Origin: a virus
DNA: 64,000 nucleotides
Virus record (IMG/VR): IMGVR_UViG_3300025929_000013
Location: 44,848 to 108,847 of that record
Direction: 5' to 3' (one strand)
In this document: positions 5,114-50,230 of the stretch, in pieces
Position numbering within the stretch: the stretch's first letter is position 1
Layout: the number at the start of each line of letters is the position of its first letter
Translations under genes and position numbers: made by a program
The notes under the pieces: model-generated
Seen by the model: only the letters and a program-made list of their open reading frames with translations
What the model was told of the DNA's origin: nothing
The model's database searches: none

Positions 5114-5415
5114 ATCACCCCCAGGGTCGGGTAGCTAGTGCCGCTGTATCCGGCCTGCGAGCCGGTGTAGTCCACGCGCGGCAGCGGGAACTTGGAGTCC
5201 ACCGCGAGCACGTCCGCGATGGTCGGCTGCTGGCACGGGCCGTATCCGAAGCGGGGCGGCGCGGGCTTGCCGATGTTCGCGATCGGCGGGCGGATCGCCT
5301 CGATCGCCGCGGTCGAGAGCCTGGCCTGGCCGCTCAGTGCGCGGCTGACCTGGTTCTCCTGCAAGCTCTGCCACGGCTTGGTGGTGTCGTAGACCGTATT
5401 CGAGTTCTGCATCAC
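5110..5415 (-). CDS. hypothetical protein
   Basis: Packed ORF, high GC3. Confidence 0.7.
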   Translation of the reverse strand: MMQNSNTVYDTTKPWQSLQENQVSRALSGQARLSTAAIEAIRPPIANIGKPAPPRFGYGPCQQPTIADVLAVDSKFPLPRVDYTGSQAGYSGTSYPTLGVM

Positions 5416-5943
5416 TTAGCTCCACGCCGGTCGCAGGTGCGCGAGCTGCGCGACCCGCCTGGGATTGGTCTGGCCGAGGGCGTTGGGGTCCTCGGGGTAG
5501 CTCACCTGCTTCATCCGGTACATCTCGGCCGGGCTGGCGGCCGGGACCTTGCCCAGGTGCGCCAGGCGCTCGACCTCGTTGCCGTGCGCGGTCCAGCGCT
5601 CGCCGCCGCGCTGCTGGGCCTCGATGCCGGACATCAGGTTCAGCTCGGGACGCCAGAAATAGTCGTTGAGGTCAATGCGCTCACCCTTGTGCACGCCGCG
5701 CTGGTACTGGCGCTGGGTCAGGCGACCCTGCACGTTGAGCATCACCCGGTCCTGGCGCCGGTCTATCAGGGTACCGATATAACCGTCTGGATACTGTGCC
5801 TGGGGGGCGCGGCCGGTCTGCATCATGCGCCGGGCGTCCTGGATGGAGCGCCCGCCGATCAGCGGCACGCCGCCGTTGGCGTTCTGGACGACAGAGCCCT
5901 GCTGACCCACGCCCATCGGCGGGTTGTACATCCAGTTCGGCAT
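5416..5943 (-). CDS. hypothetical phage protein
   Basis: Protein-like sequence (YPDGY, YQRGVHKGERID); RBS-like GGGG upstream. Confidence 0.8.
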   Translation of the reverse strand: MPNWMYNPPMGVGQQGSVVQNANGGVPLIGGRSIQDARRMMQTGRAPQAQYPDGYIGTLIDRRQDRVMLNVQGRLTQRQYQRGVHKGERIDLNDYFWRPELNLMSGIEAQQRGGERWTAHGNEVERLAHLGKVPAASPAEMYRMKQVSYPEDPNALGQTNPRRVAQLAHLRPAWS

Positions 5944-5954
5944 GGGTCACCCCC

Positions 5955-6128
5955 TTACATCGAGGACTTGCGGGCCGCCTGGTCGGCGGTCGGCATGGGG
6001 CTGATCGGCGAGGCGCCCGGGGCAGGTGCCGGATGAGCGCGCACGCCCGGCTGGCCCTGTGCGGCGAGCGAGGTGGAGAACTGGTGCGGGCTGATCGGCG
6101 CGGCGCCGGAGGTGTCGTAGCCGGACAT
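5955..6128 (-). CDS. hypothetical 57-aa protein
   Basis: ATG 6128 overlaps the TGA of the upstream gene (TGATG). Confidence 0.6.
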   Translation of the reverse strand: MSGYDTSGAAPISPHQFSTSLAAQGQPGVRAHPAPAPGASPISPMPTADQAARKSSM

Positions 6129-6454
6129 CAGTTCGGCTCCGGACCGAGGCCGTCGAACCCGGCGCGCCAGGTGTCCTTCTGGCCGTGGCTGGAGGGCAGC
6201 ATGTAGACGTTGCGGCCCAGGCCCTCGGCGGGGGCGGGGTAGGCGCGGGTGGCGGTGACCACGTTGCAGGCGCCGGAGGTCTCCTTGGTCTGGGAGCGGC
6301 GGCCGACCGGCTGGCGGGTGGGGTCCTTGGTCTTGCCCGAGCCCTTCTTGGGCACGAGGGTGCCGCCCTTGACCCCGACGGCGCGCGAGGACGTGGCGTC
6401 CGAGGTGCCGATCAAGGGCCCCATCGGCGAGATCTCGTTGCGGCTCTTGGCCAT
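6128..6454 (-). CDS. hypothetical protein
   Basis: GGAGG RBS before ATG. Confidence 0.7.
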   Translation of the reverse strand: MAKSRNEISPMGPLIGTSDATSSRAVGVKGGTLVPKKGSGKTKDPTRQPVGRRSQTKETSGACNVVTATRAYPAPAEGLGRNVYMLPSSHGQKDTWRAGFDGLGPEPN

Positions 6455-6512
6455 GGACGTGCCTCCGACATGAGCGGCCTAAGTGCGAGCGGGTGACGAT
6501 CGGCCCTGCCCA

Positions 6513-6518
6513 CAGTAT
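6513..6518 (-). promoter_or_regulatory. putative sigma70-type -10 box (TATACT)
   Basis: TATACT on the minus strand in the gap upstream of the 6454 operon. Confidence 0.35.
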
Positions 6519-6532
6519 AAAGACGTGGATGC

Positions 6533-6850
6533 CTAAGCCGTGAGTGAGGCTTCGCGGCGGCGATCGCTGCCCCAGCCCCCGCCCACGGCCTCCACCCGGA
6601 AGCTCAGGGCGCTGACGCTGCCCTCGGCGACCTGCGCGTCGGTGAACGCGATCGTGGTGATCACTGTGAGGCCCCGCTGGGCGAGGTAGCCCTGGGCGAT
6701 GGGCACGGACTTCGCAGCCTGGTTCACGGCGCTCGGCCCGATGGCGCGCATCTCGACGGTGCGCCCGTCGGCCAGGGCGTGCGCGACCGCGCTGCCCAGC
6801 TCGACGGCGGGGGTTCCGCTCTTGACGCGGAAGACGCGCGGCGCGGCCAT
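6533..6850 (-). CDS. spoVS: SpoVS-family (stage V sporulation protein S-like) protein
   Basis: RVKSGT...LGSAVAHAL...MRAIGPSAVNQAAKSVPIAQGYL matches the SpoVS consensus. Confidence 0.85.
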   Translation of the reverse strand: MAAPRVFRVKSGTPAVELGSAVAHALADGRTVEMRAIGPSAVNQAAKSVPIAQGYLAQRGLTVITTIAFTDAQVAEGSVSALSFRVEAVGGGWGSDRRREASLTA

Positions 6851-6919
6851 GGTGCTCCAAATCCGGTACTTCAGATACGAGTCCTTGTACTGAAGGTACG
6901 GCCGGGCCCTGCGGCGGTG

Positions 6920-7504
6920 TTACGCCGCCCGCGCGGTGCGCTTCATCTCGGTGTGCGGCGTGAGGGTCTGGCGCATGCGCACGTCGCGCGGCTCGTCGCC
7001 GCGGGTGGACATCGCCTTGGCGATACGGGCGAGCACGTAGGCGTCGGCGGCGTTATCGGCCTGCGCCTTGGTCATCTCCTTGGCGAAGTCGATGCCCCAC
7101 AGGCCCTTGACGGAGGCGATGACGATGTCCTTGGGCGCGCGCCCGGTGCCGGAGACGAACTTCTTGAGCGTGGGCGGAGGCACGAGGGTGGGGTAGCACA
7201 CGGGGGAGTCCAGGGTCATGCGCAGCACGGTCTTGACCACCGCGCCCAGCTCCCCGGCCTCCTCGCGCCCGTGGCTGGCGCCGTAGGCGTAGCCCTCCAT
7301 GCACACGTGGGCGACGTAGTAGCCGTGGCGGGTGTGGGTGATCTGCTCGGTCAGCCAGCGGCCGATCGCGTTGAGCCGGTCGACGCCGCTGCCATAGCTG
7401 CCCGGGGGGAACGCGGTGACCGTGGTGGTGTGCCCGTGAGGCCGCAGGATGCTCAGGCCGAATCCGCTGTAAGACTGGTCGATGCCGATCCAGCACTCGC
7501 TCAC
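6920..7504 (-). CDS. RuvC-like Holliday junction resolvase
   Basis: IGIDQS, MEGY, PPPTLKKFVSGTGRAPK and DNAADA motifs; GTG start at 7504. Confidence 0.88.
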   Translation of the reverse strand: MSECWIGIDQSYSGFGLSILRPHGHTTTVTAFPPGSYGSGVDRLNAIGRWLTEQITHTRHGYYVAHVCMEGYAYGASHGREEAGELGAVVKTVLRMTLDSPVCYPTLVPPPTLKKFVSGTGRAPKDIVIASVKGLWGIDFAKEMTKAQADNAADAYVLARIAKAMSTRGDEPRDVRMRQTLTPHTEMKRTARAA

Positions 7505-7806
7505 GGCACGTCCCGGAATTTGGAGACGCTGTGGACGCGCATGTACAGCTCCGGTCCGAAGCGGCTTTCGACCGTGTCGAAATACACCTCGAAGCGCACC
7601 ACACGGCGCCCGAGCAGGCCCGCGCTCTCGTAGGAATGGCTGAGCATGCGCCCCAGGCTGTAGCGCAGGGCGTCGGGCACGCCGAACCGGTCTATGCGGT
7701 CGTCGAGGAACTCGGACGGAAAGACCTCGCGGCACACCATCAGCCCGTGGGGATCATCCTTCTCGGGCATGCGCACGGTGTCGTCGGGCACGATCACGGG
7801 TTCCAC
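7501..7806 (-). CDS. hypothetical protein
   Basis: Packed ORF overlapping neighbours. Confidence 0.7.
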   Translation of the reverse strand: MEPVIVPDDTVRMPEKDDPHGLMVCREVFPSEFLDDRIDRFGVPDALRYSLGRMLSHSYESAGLLGRRVVRFEVYFDTVESRFGPELYMRVHSVSKFRDVP

Positions 7807-8266
7807 CTTCCGGTCCGGGTTTCTCTGTCGTGTCGTGCGGTGCGCCGGGTCAGCTCCCGGGAGACGACGGCGCCGCTGCGTTCGGCGTTGTCGCGCGCCA
7901 CGGCGGCGAATCCGCGGCTGGCGCGCACGAACTGGTGCTCGCCGTCTAGCTGCTCCACGGCCGCGTCCGAGAGGGCGGCGGCCTTCTGGGCGGCGACCGT
8001 GCGCAACTCCGGACGGCGCAGGGACGCGGCGGCCCTCTCCCGGTTCAGCGCCGTCTCCAGATCCTTCTCGTCGCTCTCGTATCGGCGGCGACCGCGGCGG
8101 CGAACGCCGTCCAGGCGCCGTAGACCACCAGCAGGCGCATCAGCTCGTCGTCGGACAGCTCGGTGATGTCCTGCGGCAGCTCGGGCATGTCGCCGTCGGG
8201 CTCGACCGGCAGGCGCAGGCCGCGGTTCTCCACCGCGCGCGCGGCTCTGCGGGTGACCGGCCTCAC
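7794..8266 (-). pseudogene. helical/coiled-coil phage protein split by a 1-nt frameshift near 8082
   Basis: GTG 8266 frame reads ...ELSDDELMRLLVVYGAWTAFAAAVAA, then protein-like sequence continues in another frame as YESDEKDLETALNRERAAA...VSRELTRR; span 473 nt is one short of 158 codons. Confidence 0.7.
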
Positions 8267-27608: not shown

Positions 27609-28700
27609 TCAGAACACCTGGTCGTAAATGCCGTGGCGCACGGCGGTGGAGTTGAACGAGTCGCTAACGGTGGTCACCAGCGTCGGCGCACCCGAGGAGC
27701 CGGGGTAGGCGTATACGCGGATGGTCGAGCCGACCGCCTGCACGTAATAGCGGCTGCCGGTCGGCAGCCGGGTGTAGGTGGCCGCGGTGGACAGGACCCC
27801 GGCGGTCATCTTCTGCACCTTGGAGCGTGAGCACATCCAGTAATTGCTGGCATCCGAGAGCCGGAACAGGATGCCGTTGTCCTCGACCGAGGGGTTGGTC
27901 ACGTCCGACTGGGCGGTCTGCCCGACGCAGCAGTCCGCGCGGGTGTCGGCGACGTAGAGGAGTTTGATTTTCTGGGCGCCGGACCAGGAGGGGTTCTTCA
28001 CCAGCACCCCGCCGGTGATCTGCCAGTACCCGACCGGGTTCGCCGTCCAGGTAAGTCCGAGGGTGTTGCCGCTGCTCGCGTTCATCTCCGGGATCGGCGC
28101 GGCCAGGCGCTGATAGCAGGGCAGTGCGACCACCGCGCCGCCGGGGGTCATCCCGCCGGGCACCGCGATCAGGCTGCCGCCCGCGTCGTACCATTCGATG
28201 CCCGCGTACACGGTGGCGGCGTACGGGCTTCCGGCGACGTAGAAGCTGGCCAGCTGCCCGGTGAACCCCGCGCCGGTGGAGAACTCCCACGCGCTGTTGC
28301 TGTCCGGGGTCGGCGGCGGTGCGGCGCCCTGGGATCCGGCGGGGGCGATGAACTGGTTGGGGCCGTAGTTCACCACCGCGCCGGGCGCGAACACCGTGGA
28401 GGCGTCCCACGCCGGGATGTAGGGCAGCGGGATGGCGCTGGCCGCGACCAGCCCCTTGTCCGGGCTCGTATACGCACTGAACGCCCAGGTGCCCGGCGCG
28501 GGCGGGGAGACGTTGGTGTTGGCGAGCAGCGCCTGGTACTGGCGGGTGTCCGTACCGGTCACGATCGCCCCCGCGGAGTATGCGGTGGCCGAGCTCCAGG
28601 AGGTGATCAGCGGGTATTCGGCGCTGGAGAGGGCCGCGACGCCGCTGGTGGTGGGGGTGGCGATCAGCCAGATCTGGTTCGCGATCGGAACGGTGGTCAT
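27609..28700 (-). CDS. minor tail protein with CBM5/12-like repeats
   Basis: ATG 28700; WSSATAYSAGAIV and WDASTVFAPGAVVNY repeats. Confidence 0.75.
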   Translation of the reverse strand: MTTVPIANQIWLIATPTTSGVAALSSAEYPLITSWSSATAYSAGAIVTGTDTRQYQALLANTNVSPPAPGTWAFSAYTSPDKGLVAASAIPLPYIPAWDASTVFAPGAVVNYGPNQFIAPAGSQGAAPPPTPDSNSAWEFSTGAGFTGQLASFYVAGSPYAATVYAGIEWYDAGGSLIAVPGGMTPGGAVVALPCYQRLAAPIPEMNASSGNTLGLTWTANPVGYWQITGGVLVKNPSWSGAQKIKLLYVADTRADCCVGQTAQSDVTNPSVEDNGILFRLSDASNYWMCSRSKVQKMTAGVLSTAATYTRLPTGSRYYVQAVGSTIRVYAYPGSSGAPTLVTTVSDSFNSTAVRHGIYDQVF

Positions 28701-44686: not shown

Positions 44687-45127
44687 TCATGCCAGGCTCA
44701 TCGTCAAGGCGTTCGCGGCCAGCTGGAGCGAGTCGTTCTGTGCCGCGGCCCCGGGGGTGTCCAGCGTCCAGAGCATCAGGGGGATGCCGGAGGTGCCGGT
44801 GGACACGGTCACCAGGGCGCACATGGTCGCGGCCGGTCCGATGCCCAGGGCGCCGGTGAACGGGCCGAACAGCACCGGCGAGGAGTTCGCGACCTGATAC
44901 GTCCCGGAGCTCAGCGCAGCGGCGGCGAAGGTGACGCTCTGGCGTGCGTATCCGGCGGCGGACACCTCGTTGTAGGTGGGCAGCGAGGACGGGTCGGACG
45001 GGGACGCGGTCAGCAGCATCAGGTACACCGTGCGCGACGGCGCGGAGACCACCAGCGTGGTCGCCATCGAGCCGTCCAGGTAATCGAGGCAGTACGCCGC
45101 CCCGATCGGGGTGAAGTTGCCGCTCAC
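44687..45127 (-). CDS. virion structural protein (beta-rich)
   Basis: VYLMLLTA.P...EVSAAGYARQSVTF motif. Confidence 0.7.
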   Translation of the reverse strand: MSGNFTPIGAAYCLDYLDGSMATTLVVSAPSRTVYLMLLTASPSDPSSLPTYNEVSAAGYARQSVTFAAAALSSGTYQVANSSPVLFGPFTGALGIGPAATMCALVTVSTGTSGIPLMLWTLDTPGAAAQNDSLQLAANALTMSLA

Positions 45128-46380: not shown

Positions 46381-47647
46381 TCAGTTGGTGTTGACGACCA
46401 CGACGGACTGATCGGTGATCAGGCCCATACCGAGGATCGCGTACCAAGCCAGTGCATGTTCACGTCCGAAGTCCAAGACGCCGCCGTCGCGCAATTCCAC
46501 TGGTAGAGAGATCGCGTGGCCGTAGGCGTTGTCGCCGATGAACGTTGAGGAGTACACATCGACCGGAACGGTGTTCTGTGTCTTCGTGACCTGAGTCGTC
46601 TCGATGAAGATCACGTCGAACAGACGTCCCACCTCACCAAGCATGAAATTCCCCGGAGCCGCATATTTAGTGACCTCGATGAACTCGGGCGCTTCACGCA
46701 AATGGCGCGATTGGTGCGGATGGATGAATCCGACGTAAGTCTCCCCAATCCGGGGCACATTCTTCGTCGCCAGGGTCTCCGCGACGTCGCGGATGGCGGC
46801 CGGGGTGAGGTTGTACGTCCCGGTCAGTCCGTTGGTGGAGGTGCCCACGGTGCCGAAGTCGTACGGGCTCTTGTTGGTGATCGAGCCGCTGGGGTTGGAG
46901 TACCCGAACAGCAGGCTGCTGGCCGTCTGCAACGTTGATTGGGCCAGATTATCAAGGTATTGAGCCATGTTGCGGCCCAGGAGACGGCTGGCCGAGGCCA
47001 TGACGTCGTCGAAGGACGCGTTGAGCAACAGCTCGGTGACAGCCACCGCATATCCATGCTCGGCGACTGTGATCGAGAACTGCGACGCCGTGAGGGCGTT
47101 GGTCTGCATGCGAACACCCTCGACGAGCTGCGCCGCAGCGCCCAGGTTGTTGTATCGCATGAAGTTGATGGTAAGACCTGGAGATACACCCAGTTCTGTC
47201 TTCTTCACAGCGAACTGCTCGAAGCGCAGAATCGGCATGGCCTGGAAGCAAGTTGTTACCCAGCAGTTACCCACTAGGGCCAGGTCGTTTCCGCCTGGCT
47301 CTGCACCTTTTCCATCGGTGCAGATCGGACTGTATCTTCGGCTCCAGTCCCGGTCGGCTATACCGGCCTTCCGGTCCTGTTGGAGTCGCCTCGCGTGCAG
47401 TCTCTACGGCGTCCCCGGTACGGGTTCCCTCGGTATTCCCCGTGCCACGAGTCATGTTCTACGAGCGTCGGTGGGGTTCACCGATACAGCGTGGTGTTTA
47501 CTCGCCGGTCACCCGACGAGGTCCCCTGGTGTCGAGGATTTCCTTCGACCATATAGTTTGGATCGCCTGCGACAGCTGGTTGTTGGACCCGCTGTAGTTC
47601 GTCGGCGAACCCGACAAGTTGGGTGTACCCGTGATCGCATTGGCCAT
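46381..47647 (-). CDS. major capsid protein (N4-gp56-like), two exons 47647-47535 and 47248-46381, 326 aa
   Basis: AGGAG RBS, then MANAITG...AIQTIWSKEIL joined to FQAMPILRFEQFAVKKTEL...HPHQ...GEVG...DFGREH..WY. Confidence 0.92.
47249..47534 (-). ncRNA. group I self-splicing intron (286 nt, no ORF) in the capsid gene
   Basis: Exon ends in U with a U.G pair in P1 (UCCU|C with GGGGA); terminal G; P UAUCGGUGAA, Q GAAUACCGAG, R GUAGAGACUGCA, S AAGAUACAGUCC; P7 GACUG/CAGUC; removal restores the frame. Confidence 0.93.
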
Positions 47648-47683: not shown

Positions 47684-48466
47684 TCAGCGGTAGAGACCGC
47701 CCTGCCGGACCTGGTTGGAGGCTGCCGCGAGTAGTTGCTGCCGATGCGTCGCGTACTCCGCCATGGACATCTCGGAGATGTCTTTCGGAGTCAGCGTGCG
47801 CTGTGCCGGGTCTGTGTCCATCGGGCCGATGTTGGGGCGTCCGGTGGCGGACACCCCGCGCAGGCTGGCCTGACGCGCCTGCGCCTGTGCTCCCGAGATC
47901 GCGTCAACGATCGCGGAGGATTTGGCCGTGAGCATCGCGATCGAGGCGTCGATCTCCTCACGGGTATTGCCGGTCACCAGGTCCAGAAGCTCCGGGGCGA
48001 TCGCATCACGCGCCTCGTCGACCTTCGCCTGGGTGTACGACTTCAGCTCGTTGTACTGCCGTTCCTTGTCGAAGATCGCCCGCTCTTCCAGCCGCTGGCG
48101 CTCCATCTCCGCCATCTGGGCCTGCCAGCGCTCGGACTCCTGGCGAACGAAGTCCTTGGCGGACATCTCCGCCTCTTCCCGCGCCTTCTGCGCCGCGTCC
48201 GCGTCCGCCTTCGCCTTGGCGATCGCGTCGGCCTCGGCCTGGCGCTCGGTCTCCAGCGCCGCGAGCTTGGACTGGATCGAGTTGATCGTCTCGGACTGCT
48301 CGCTCAGGCGGCCGTAGAGCTTGTCGCGCTCGTCCTGGCGGGCCTTCTGAAGCGCCGCCTCGGTGAACATGCGCTCGGCGGCGGGGTCTGCGGACGGCGG
48401 GGGAGTGGGCACCGGCACCGGGATGGTGATGGTGCCTGCGGGGTCGGTGGTCGGATCGAGGTCCAC
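47684..48466 (-). CDS. capsid scaffolding protein
   Basis: Coiled-coil; KARQDERDKLY...ISEMSMAEY..RQQLL; between portal and capsid. Confidence 0.8.
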   Translation of the reverse strand: MDLDPTTDPAGTITIPVPVPTPPPSADPAAERMFTEAALQKARQDERDKLYGRLSEQSETINSIQSKLAALETERQAEADAIAKAKADADAAQKAREEAEMSAKDFVRQESERWQAQMAEMERQRLEERAIFDKERQYNELKSYTQAKVDEARDAIAPELLDLVTGNTREEIDASIAMLTAKSSAIVDAISGAQAQARQASLRGVSATGRPNIGPMDTDPAQRTLTPKDISEMSMAEYATHRQQLLAAASNQVRQGGLYR

Positions 48467-48469
48467 GTG

Positions 48470-50167
48470 TCACGTCTCCGAAGACTTGTTGGTGTCCGGA
48501 TTTCGCCACTGGGCCAATTTCGTCCCTGCGGCGAGTGCCACGAGTTCGTCCTGTATTTTCTTCGTGTCCTCGCTCAGCCCGCCCACGCCGGGAAGGCCGG
48601 GGAGCGGAGCGGGGTCGCCGGACGCGGGGCCCGGCGGTGGTGCGGGCGGCTCTACCCCCTCTGGGGGAAGGCCGGTCATGTCGAGGATAACACTGGCTAT
48701 CTGAGCCTTTAGTAGGTCCAGTACACCCTGGTGTTTGGTCTCCTCAAGCTGCTCGTCGAAGATCTCGGCCAGTGCGTCGGCCGGGAACTCCTCGCCCAAT
48801 TCTCGCAGCGCCCCGCGCTTGGACGTGAGCCCCAGCTGCAACTTAACCATCAGCTCGTTGAGTTTGACCAGGACGTCGACCGGCAGCGGCGGCGGGAAGT
48901 CGGCGACCGTGCGGTAGACGAGGGGGTCGGTGGGGTCGAGCACGTCGGCCTGGCTGGGATCTGTCTTGAGTCCCTCGGTGTCCGGGTCGTAGTTCAGGGT
49001 CTGCGGCTCGAACAGGAACAGCGTGCGCAGGGCGAGCTCGTTGATGCGCGCGAACCCCGCGGAGTACTGGATGATCTTGCGGTGGTAGCGCAACATCATG
49101 GGCTGATATTGAATGCTGAGTGCCACGCCACTGGTGTTGCTGACCGGCTGCTCCTGGCCGAGCGCGTTCTCCGGCACGCCCGTCATCTCGTGCATCGCGG
49201 TCTTCAAAAACTGGAGGTACTGGAGCGCCCACTCCAGCTCGATGTTGTTCTCCAGGTTGTAGACCTTGGCGTCCTTGGGCAGCCCGCCCCACACCTTGCG
49301 AGGGCCCTTCTCAAGATTCGAAGCTTTGGCCCCTGAGATAATCGTCACCGGCGCCGCGTGGTAGTCGATGATCTCGCTGATGTTCGTGGCTTGCTCGTTG
49401 AGTTCCCTGTTCAGCGAGATGATGTCCGCGATGTCGGACAGCCCCCAGGGCGACCCGGGCACCTCGATATTCGTGATCGGCACGATCGGGATCTCGCCGA
49501 GCCCGTTGGGGTGCGAGTCGATCAGCTCATCGTTGATGTACTCCTCGACATACTCGTCCGTGATGATCTCAGTGTATGTATATACCTGCCGCGTGCCCTC
49601 TGTAGAGGTACCCCAAAAGCGGTATTTTAGCTTAAAACGGACAAGTCGCTCAGGATCGTGTGGATGATATTCAGGGAATGCGAAGCTCGGGTTGATCGCC
49701 AGCAGCCGCACGCGGCCGGGGTGCTGCATCCCCGCGGCGTCCGTCCACGCGGGCTCATACGCCACCTTCACGAAGACGTCCCCGCAGACCCCGGCGAGCT
49801 CGCCGATCTGCATCAGGAGCTTGTCCTTGCGGTTGTCGACCTCCCACACCCTTTTGAGCAGGGCGGGGACGATGTGCTCGGTGGCCTTGTCGCTGGCGAA
49901 GTGCACGCCGCGCGAGAAAGTGAAGGAGGTGATGAAGCGGGAGAACGCCGCCGTGTAGTTGAAGGTGAGCTGCGTTTCGCCCGATTCGCGACGATATCCC
50001 CAGTGATGTCCCAAAAACCACGCCAGATTCTGGGCATAACGGTTCAAACGTGGACCATGCACCTCAAATTCCTCGTCGGCCAATTCGACGAGTCCGAGGG
50101 GTGATATAGCAACGGTGAGATCCGACGCCGCGGCCCGCATGGAGGGGGACGGGAACGACATCGACAC
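48470..50167 (-). CDS. portal protein (SPP1 gp6-like)
   Basis: GDVFVKV, NGLGEIPIV, WGLSDI, NTSGVAL; size and position. Confidence 0.9.
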   Translation of the reverse strand: MSMSFPSPSMRAAASDLTVAISPLGLVELADEEFEVHGPRLNRYAQNLAWFLGHHWGYRRESGETQLTFNYTAAFSRFITSFTFSRGVHFASDKATEHIVPALLKRVWEVDNRKDKLLMQIGELAGVCGDVFVKVAYEPAWTDAAGMQHPGRVRLLAINPSFAFPEYHPHDPERLVRFKLKYRFWGTSTEGTRQVYTYTEIITDEYVEEYINDELIDSHPNGLGEIPIVPITNIEVPGSPWGLSDIADIISLNRELNEQATNISEIIDYHAAPVTIISGAKASNLEKGPRKVWGGLPKDAKVYNLENNIELEWALQYLQFLKTAMHEMTGVPENALGQEQPVSNTSGVALSIQYQPMMLRYHRKIIQYSAGFARINELALRTLFLFEPQTLNYDPDTEGLKTDPSQADVLDPTDPLVYRTVADFPPPLPVDVLVKLNELMVKLQLGLTSKRGALRELGEEFPADALAEIFDEQLEETKHQGVLDLLKAQIASVILDMTGLPPEGVEPPAPPPGPASGDPAPLPGLPGVGGLSEDTKKIQDELVALAAGTKLAQWRNPDTNKSSET

Positions 50168-50230
50168 CGCTGGCCCCTCCCTTCAGTGAGTTGATCTACA
50201 CCTAGACTTACCGAGCTGTGCGCAGGAGTG

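Follow-up and report, generated by a model that had tools for sequence, protein, structure and literature searches.

How does a phage with a single capsid gene in its head module produce a major capsid protein when the reading frame of that gene is interrupted by 286 nt? We addressed this question at a locus in the right-hand 64 kb (64,000 nucleotides, positions 44,848 to 108,847) of the 108,847-bp IMG/VR virus record IMGVR_UViG_3300025929_000013, which CheckV rated complete. This whole stretch of analyzed DNA is hereafter called the window, and its head module contains the following.

48470-50167, minus strand: portal gene (SPP1_portal, E 1e-19)
47684-48466, minus strand: ORF at the scaffold position of the head module
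46381-47274, minus strand: long ORF of the capsid gene (Pfam Phage_capsid_4, E 1.3e-8)

No second capsid gene is present in the module of this genome. The capsid protein had 70% identity with the major capsid proteins annotated in the Streptomyces phages BRock, LuckySocke, Alone3, GiJojo, and pSt2308, the genomes of which are 112 to 116 kb in size, and the phage is probably a BRock-like virus infecting Streptomyces. The GC content of the capsid-portal region (46381-47647 and 48000-50200) was 62 to 64%, compared with 68% for the whole window, and the GC3 of the capsid gene ranged from 0.65 to 1.0 per 20 codons. Comparative sequence analysis indicates that the insert is very probably an ORF-less group I intron which must be removed to make the capsid protein. 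The interrupted gene is laid out as follows.

47661-47657, minus strand: Shine-Dalgarno-like AGGAG, read from the sequence, 9 nt upstream of the capsid start codon
47647-47645, minus strand: capsid ATG, read from the sequence
47647-47535, minus strand: capsid exon 1, 113 nt (37 codons plus 2 nt), ending GAA ATC CT
47534-47249, minus strand: predicted group I intron, 286 nt, ORF-less, starting at C47534 and ending at G47249
47500-47498, minus strand: in-frame UAA between P2 and P3, ending the unspliced frame after 49 aa
47248-46381, minus strand: capsid exon 2, 868 nt including the stop codon, starting C TTC CAG

The intron interrupts codon 38 of the capsid gene, and the final base of exon 1, U47535, is the U of the 5' splice site. 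Joining 47535 to 47248 gives a 326-aa major capsid protein, and this frame exists only once 47534 to 47249 is precisely removed. The junction has a one-base ambiguity, which was settled by the rule that a U precedes the intron and a G ends it. The resulting junction, WSKEIL/FQAMPILRF, is the same as in the uninterrupted LuckySocke capsid protein, and the 21 surrounding residues are identical. Both exons were mapped by tblastn onto 80 capsid loci of IMG/VR relatives, which were those kept from roughly 600, and the exons abutted without a gap at the intron position in 78 of them. Judged by the frame and by the LuckySocke junction, the exon and intron coordinates, the removal of 286 nt, and the 326-aa product given in the initial annotation were exact to the base. 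Its claim that the unspliced frame stops after 49 aa was borne out by the UAA read in frame, and the intron-less homologues that it had suggested looking for were found in LuckySocke and in the 78 relatives with contiguous exons.

The closest relative, L005, is intron-less, with 90% identity in exon 2 and 36 of 37 identical residues in exon 1. Between L005 and the window, exon 1 shows 30 differences in 111 nucleotides but a single amino acid difference in 37 residues, and it therefore appears to be under purifying selection as coding sequence, which argues against a capsid start at the internal GTG 47274. This GTG opens a 297-aa ORF, the first nine codons of which belong to the conserved 3' tail of the intron. 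Neither the 49-aa ORF (47498-47647) nor the ORFs inside the 286-nt insert matched any Pfam family, in agreement with the earlier statement that the intron carries no homing endonuclease ORF.

We then examined whether the insert folds as a group I intron by aligning 36 distinct homologous introns and drawing a group I structure by hand on the window copy. The drawn fold comprises P2, P3, P4, P5, P6/P6a, P7 (in a pseudoknot with P3), P8, P9, P9a, and P9b; together with P1 at the 5' splice site, its elements are located as follows.

47538-47534, minus strand: P1 5' strand, the last four exon bases and the first intron base, pairing with 47526-47522
47526-47522, minus strand: internal guide sequence GGGGA, the P1 3' strand
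47520-47501, minus strand: P2 hairpin, 8 bp, with a GUGA (GNRA) loop; 8 of 8 pairs compensatory, 99% of cells paired
47494-47489, minus strand: P3 5' strand, pairing with 47394-47389; 5 of 8 P3 pairs compensatory, also found by RNAalifold
47484-47430, minus strand: P4-P5 domain, in which P4 (5 bp) is 47484-47480 with 47434-47430, and J4/5 is GAA
47476-47473 with 47441-47438, minus strand: P5, closing a 31-nt L5 extension (47472-47442)
47429-47408, minus strand: P6/P6a, with one pair changed from G-C to C-G in five members
47404-47398, minus strand: P7 5' strand with bulged A47403, pairing with 47332-47327
47394-47389, minus strand: P3 3' strand
47388-47339, minus strand: P8 with an inner hairpin; 4 of 8 pairs compensatory, the inner stem also covarying
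47338-47327, minus strand: J8/7 (AAGAUA) and P7 3' strand, matching the RF00028 consensus better than any other segment
47323-47301, minus strand: P9 hairpin; 6 of 7 pairs compensatory
47299-47279, minus strand: P9a hairpin with a GAAA loop; 6 of 8 pairs compensatory
47278-47259, minus strand: P9b hairpin with a GUAA loop; 4 of 5 pairs compensatory
47249, minus strand: terminal (omega) G at the 3' splice site, read from the sequence

The alignment agreed well with this fold. Standard pairs were formed in 94.2% of cells across the 36 introns, compared with 32 to 42% when the 3' partners were slid by one to three columns, and double-sided changes were present in 36 of the 65 pairs (325 cells). 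None of 500 shuffles reached any of the five covariation measures. Besides, RNAalifold independently recovered P2, P3, P4, P5, P6, P8, P9, and P9a. P4 and P5 do not vary among the 36 members, and covariation therefore neither supports nor contradicts these two helices. All 92 family-invariant positions were intact in the window intron. Its P3 contains one A.A mismatch, which is common to 19 of the 36 members, and its P8 contains an A.C mismatch, which was likewise found in other members. The elements named in the initial annotation (the U.G pair of P1, P2 with its GUGA loop, P4, P7 at 47402-47398 with 47332-47328, P8, three hairpins in the P9 region, and the terminal G) were all present at the coordinates given there. 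The 31-nt L5 extension holds two imperfect copies of a word of about 10 nt; a similar duplicated word occurs in the site C clade, L109, and L115 and was not seen in the other site A introns (sites are defined below), a distribution which suggests mosaic exchange between intron lineages.

P7 is of particular relevance to catalysis. Across the 36 introns, 2 of its 5 pairs were compensatory and 99.4% of its cells were paired. Beyond the bulged A47403, an extra pair (G47404-C47327) is formed, which is replaced by A-U through changes on both sides in two members. We take the bulged-A arrangement of P7 and the J8/7-P7 segment to resemble the textbook Tetrahymena core, and by analogy with that core, G47402-C47328 is the presumptive guanosine-binding pair. 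In the arrangement of P1 to P9, the P3/P7 pseudoknot, the bulged A in P7, the near-consensus J8/7-P7 segment, the U.G pair at the 5' splice site, and the terminal G, the window intron is like canonical group I introns (RF00028, Tetrahymena-type core). It lacks the P7.1/P7.2 insertions of T4 td-type (IA2) phage introns.

The insert is nevertheless unlike canonical RF00028 members in its score. The Rfam model RF00028, which the initial annotation had named as a check, aligned over all 253 model positions but at 17.1 bits (E 0.056 for a stretch of 501 nt, or 0.003 when the whole genome was scanned), below the curated gathering score of 50 bits. At the gathering threshold, Rfam gave no match in the whole window; no group II intron family was matched even at E up to 10, nor did any other Rfam family match. 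A homologous insert located 11 nt upstream in the relative L042 scored 40.3 bits against RF00028 (E 6e-9). We used a profile hidden Markov model (HMM) for the family, which was sufficient because the sequence is well conserved, and the model built without the window copy matched the insert at E 7.5e-64. A 20-nt core word common to the window intron and that of L042 occurs in 37 IMG/VR contigs and also in six Streptomyces genome assemblies and one Microgenomates metagenome-assembled genome (MAG). Overall, about 45 independent contigs and genomes contain homologous inserts, and within the phage genome itself the window intron is the only copy. The presence of BRock-like capsid genes with family introns in the six Streptomyces assemblies supports Streptomyces as the host genus; in these assemblies, the introns were seen at site C in L123, L125, L128, and L129 and at site A in L126. 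The L126 capsid match has another break, of about 350 nt, between residues 306 and 307, at a partial HMM hit, and this gene likely holds a second intron near its C terminus. The Microgenomates sequence (L127, positions 78-244; LCJH01000058.1) matches the family HMM in its P3-P8 core (E 1.7e-25) with a different periphery, and it is an RNA carried by a candidate-phyla-radiation bacterium.

The family occupies at least five sites in the capsid gene (A to E, of which A is that of the window), between codons 33 and 70, a span of about 40 codons, and relatives also carry it in other genes, including the portal gene (L106). Some capsid genes have more than one intron (sites B and C in L108; sites A and D in L103 and L087/L099), and some contigs carry three or four family copies. 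Two to four full copies lie within a few kilobases in L108 (IMGVR_UViG_3300049781_000089, 5600-7950), L096 (1650-4100), L103 (750-1350), and L087/L099. The same relatives give partial HMM hits covering the 3' domain only, which may represent a second, diverged intron family.

The pairing at the 5' splice site was assessed with 23 capsid or portal introns, the splice sites of which were fixed independently by protein homology. In the window, P1 has 5 bp, in which U47535 lies opposite G47525 as the U.G wobble of the 5' splice site. The helix is formed in every one of the 23 introns, with the exon-terminal U facing an invariant G. In 23 of 23, the first base of the intron likewise pairs with the preceding G (as a G.U wobble in two copies), and the helix then extends by two to four Watson-Crick pairs. 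Every intron behind an exon ending in GGU has a guide starting with GGCC, whereas the exons of the six introns at the window site end in UCCU and all face the guide GGGGA, a difference of three coordinated changes. Further matched variants of exon and guide were found at the other insertion sites. Such concerted changes are what a working P1 predicts. Besides, introns at all five capsid sites also end in G.

On these grounds, the intron would act as follows. After the late transcript is made, the intron would fold, with P1 formed between the end of exon 1 and the guide at 47526-47522. The core of P3 to P8 with its P3/P7 pseudoknot and the three P9 hairpins would then form, exogenous guanosine bound at P7 would attack the bond after U47535, and the terminal G47249 would next occupy the P7 site, so that the exons are ligated into an mRNA for the 326-aa capsid protein. 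The position of the UAA (47500-47498), immediately past P2 and ahead of P3, should cause ribosomes that translate unspliced RNA to terminate before entering the catalytic core. We infer that the window copy splices by this standard two-step chemistry, efficiently enough for capsid production.

In public RNA data, two rhizosphere metatranscriptome runs each contained one contig joining 47247 to 47534, with precisely 286 nt skipped. Relative to the window, 27 of 565 flanking bases are different in these contigs, which hence belong to a relative that may simply be intron-less and speak neither for nor against splicing. A third run, labelled RNA but probably DNA, contained short exact pieces of the intron and of exon 1, along with joined forms from other relatives, and bears on splicing no more than the first two.

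Splicing in vivo has been demonstrated in related RNAs. When the intron alone was used as a blastn query, 28 Cluster J mycobacteriophages were matched (71.5% identity over 165 nt, E 2e-10), and the match falls under the minor tail protein gene of BAKA, the annotation of which notes a possible group I intron. This match surfaced only with the intron-alone query and a looser limit; blastn of the phage collection with the exon flanks included gave nothing at E 1e-5. The BAKA intron (28186-28450 of its record), which had been left out of the alignment, scored 146.8 bits against the family HMM (E 1.1e-44), and blastn with a second family member as the query matched the capsid intron of LittleE. Pope et al. 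(2013) demonstrated splicing of the BAKA and LittleE introns by RT-PCR, and that of LittleE additionally by N-terminal sequencing of the protein (PMC3706429). In both, a U precedes the intron and a G ends it; the BAKA intron was described as being without an endonuclease gene, and the 5' 156 bp of the LittleE intron are 98% identical to the BAKA intron (PMC3706429). On homology, the window intron is assigned to the same actinobacteriophage family as the minor-tail intron of BAKA and the capsid intron of LittleE.

The minor-tail intron of BAKA and Optimus is like the window intron in being a homologous, ORF-less RNA with a U before it and a G at its end. BAKA, moreover, is a phage of roughly 110 kb with a high-GC actinobacterial host, and its intron likewise sits in a late virion gene. 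The two differ in length (265 nt in BAKA and 286 nt in the window), in gene (tail rather than capsid), in host genus, and in guide (GGCCGCC in BAKA and GGGGA in the window). The 31-nt L5 extension belongs to the window copy and not to that of BAKA, and blastn aligns the core only. LittleE, in turn, is like the window phage in that an intron of the same RNA family interrupts the major capsid gene near its N terminus; however, its intron is 820 bp long, carries a homing endonuclease gene, and lies at an unrelated position in a different capsid gene. The introns of T4 td, nrdB, and nrdD, of the SPO1 DNA polymerase gene, and of staphylococcal phage lysin and polymerase genes resemble that of the window in being of the self-splicing type, in essential genes, and sporadic in occurrence. 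These classical phage introns are mostly in DNA-metabolism or lysis genes of phages with low-GC or Gram-negative hosts, and many have endonuclease genes (PMC3706429). With BAKA and LittleE published, capsid and tail introns in phages of high-GC hosts were already known; the same study cited an earlier capsid-gene intron in the lactococcal phage Tuc2009 (PMC3706429). The view in the initial annotation that phage introns are mostly reported in DNA-metabolism genes and in lower-GC hosts is therefore out of date, as it misses the BAKA and LittleE precedent (PMC3706429). For Streptomyces phages, we found no description of introns in the literature, and two genome announcements state that none were detected.

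Could the intron be retained in the capsid gene as a regulator? The initial annotation had proposed a GTP/Mg-sensitive splicing checkpoint that would gate capsid synthesis and late expression. It is true that no capsid protein is possible without splicing and that group I chemistry requires guanosine and Mg. A conserved regulatory device would, however, be expected at a conserved place across the clade, whereas this intron is absent from 78 of the 80 related capsid genes, including that of the nearest relative, L005, and homologous introns occur at four other capsid sites, in the portal gene, and in other genes of relatives. Such sporadic occurrence, with the nearest relative lacking the intron and other sites occupied in relatives, is the pattern of a mobile element rather than that of a conserved regulatory device, and no result of our analysis points specifically to regulation. 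The checkpoint is thus very unlikely, and of the original interpretation it is the group I intron that stands, by homology, covariation, and spliced kin. The intron looks like a dispensable mobile element, not a regulator.

The insert might alternatively be dead, leaving the capsid gene broken or the protein starting at GTG 47274 without its first 38 residues. The 297-aa ORF from this GTG does exist, and gene callers would report it, but its first nine residues come from the conserved 3' tail of the intron. Exon 1 has retained its ribosome-binding site and start codon and still encodes 36 of the 37 residues of L005 despite 30 nucleotide changes. Moreover, 92 of 92 family-invariant positions are intact in the insert, and the genome is rated complete, with this capsid gene alone in its module, all of which make a nonsplicing insert highly improbable. 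We found no support for other kinds of intervening element (an intein or a group II intron), for translational bypass, or for an assembly artifact, and we give these hardly any credence. An intein is an in-frame insert that is translated and removed at the protein level; the present insert has in-frame stops (UAA 14 codons into the insert), and 286 nt is not a multiple of 3. Group II introns are six-domain RNAs with a domain V and are usually longer than 600 nt, whereas the insert has a length of 286 nt and no group II match in Rfam. To our knowledge, all known bypass gaps are far shorter than 286 nt. As for an assembly artifact, a 30-kb contig from a source-like DNA run covers the whole stretch with zero differences, and the homologous inserts come from about 45 contigs and genomes that are independent of one another. 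Our reading of the insert remains that of an ORF-less group I intron.

How such introns spread is less clear. A six-frame search of the whole phage genome revealed no HNH, HNH_3, GIY-YIG, LAGLIDADG_1, or LAGLIDADG_3 domain, which leaves room for spread by reverse splicing. Each family intron follows an exon word of 4 to 6 nt complementary to its own guide, and in most cases the exon ends in GGU and the guide is GGCC; since splicing itself needs complementarity in P1, this match of site and guide does not distinguish reverse splicing from endonuclease-assisted insertion with selection. Copies within one genome are sometimes the nearest relatives of each other. Intron pairs on the same contig in L111 and L106 were 85 to 86% identical, compared with a 95th percentile of 82% between contigs, implying either transposition within the genome or gene conversion between copies. 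In L106, the portal intron (2198-2479) and the capsid intron at site B (5218-5503) are 85% identical and are sisters on the tree (100/90). They have a common guide variant (GGCCCCC), an identical 3' end, and the target GGT/CCA in both cases, which suggests recent spread within the genome or gene conversion. The maximum-likelihood tree of the 36 introns was poorly resolved, with support for a site C clade (98/91) and too little resolution to show whether the six site A introns have a single origin. A co-conversion tract, sought as lower exon identity beside the intron in comparison with L005, gave no clear signal. It is conceivable, although we hold the idea only tentatively and consider it doubtful, that the family spreads by guide-directed reverse splicing into abundant late mRNAs and not by endonuclease homing.

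The window intron is a further member of an experimentally validated intron family and no new kind of system. It has practical consequences for annotation, because gene callers will split the capsid gene into the 49-aa ORF and the 297-aa ORF, the GTG start of which lies inside the intron and is false, and the intron is missed at the Rfam threshold; the capsid genes of these actinophages will thus be misannotated unless a family-specific model is used. This concerns a large group of soil actinophages and Streptomyces-associated phage sequences. With our results, the hosts of the BAKA/LittleE intron family, which densely populates the most conserved stretch of the capsid gene, come to include Streptomyces-type phages. 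The matched guide changes across sites provide comparative data on the movement of ORF-less group I introns, for which natural examples are few, and this multisite pattern with guide retargeting is the part of most value for follow-up. If the reverse-splicing reading is true, the family would be a natural record of that process, and the window intron would be one retargeted lineage within it.
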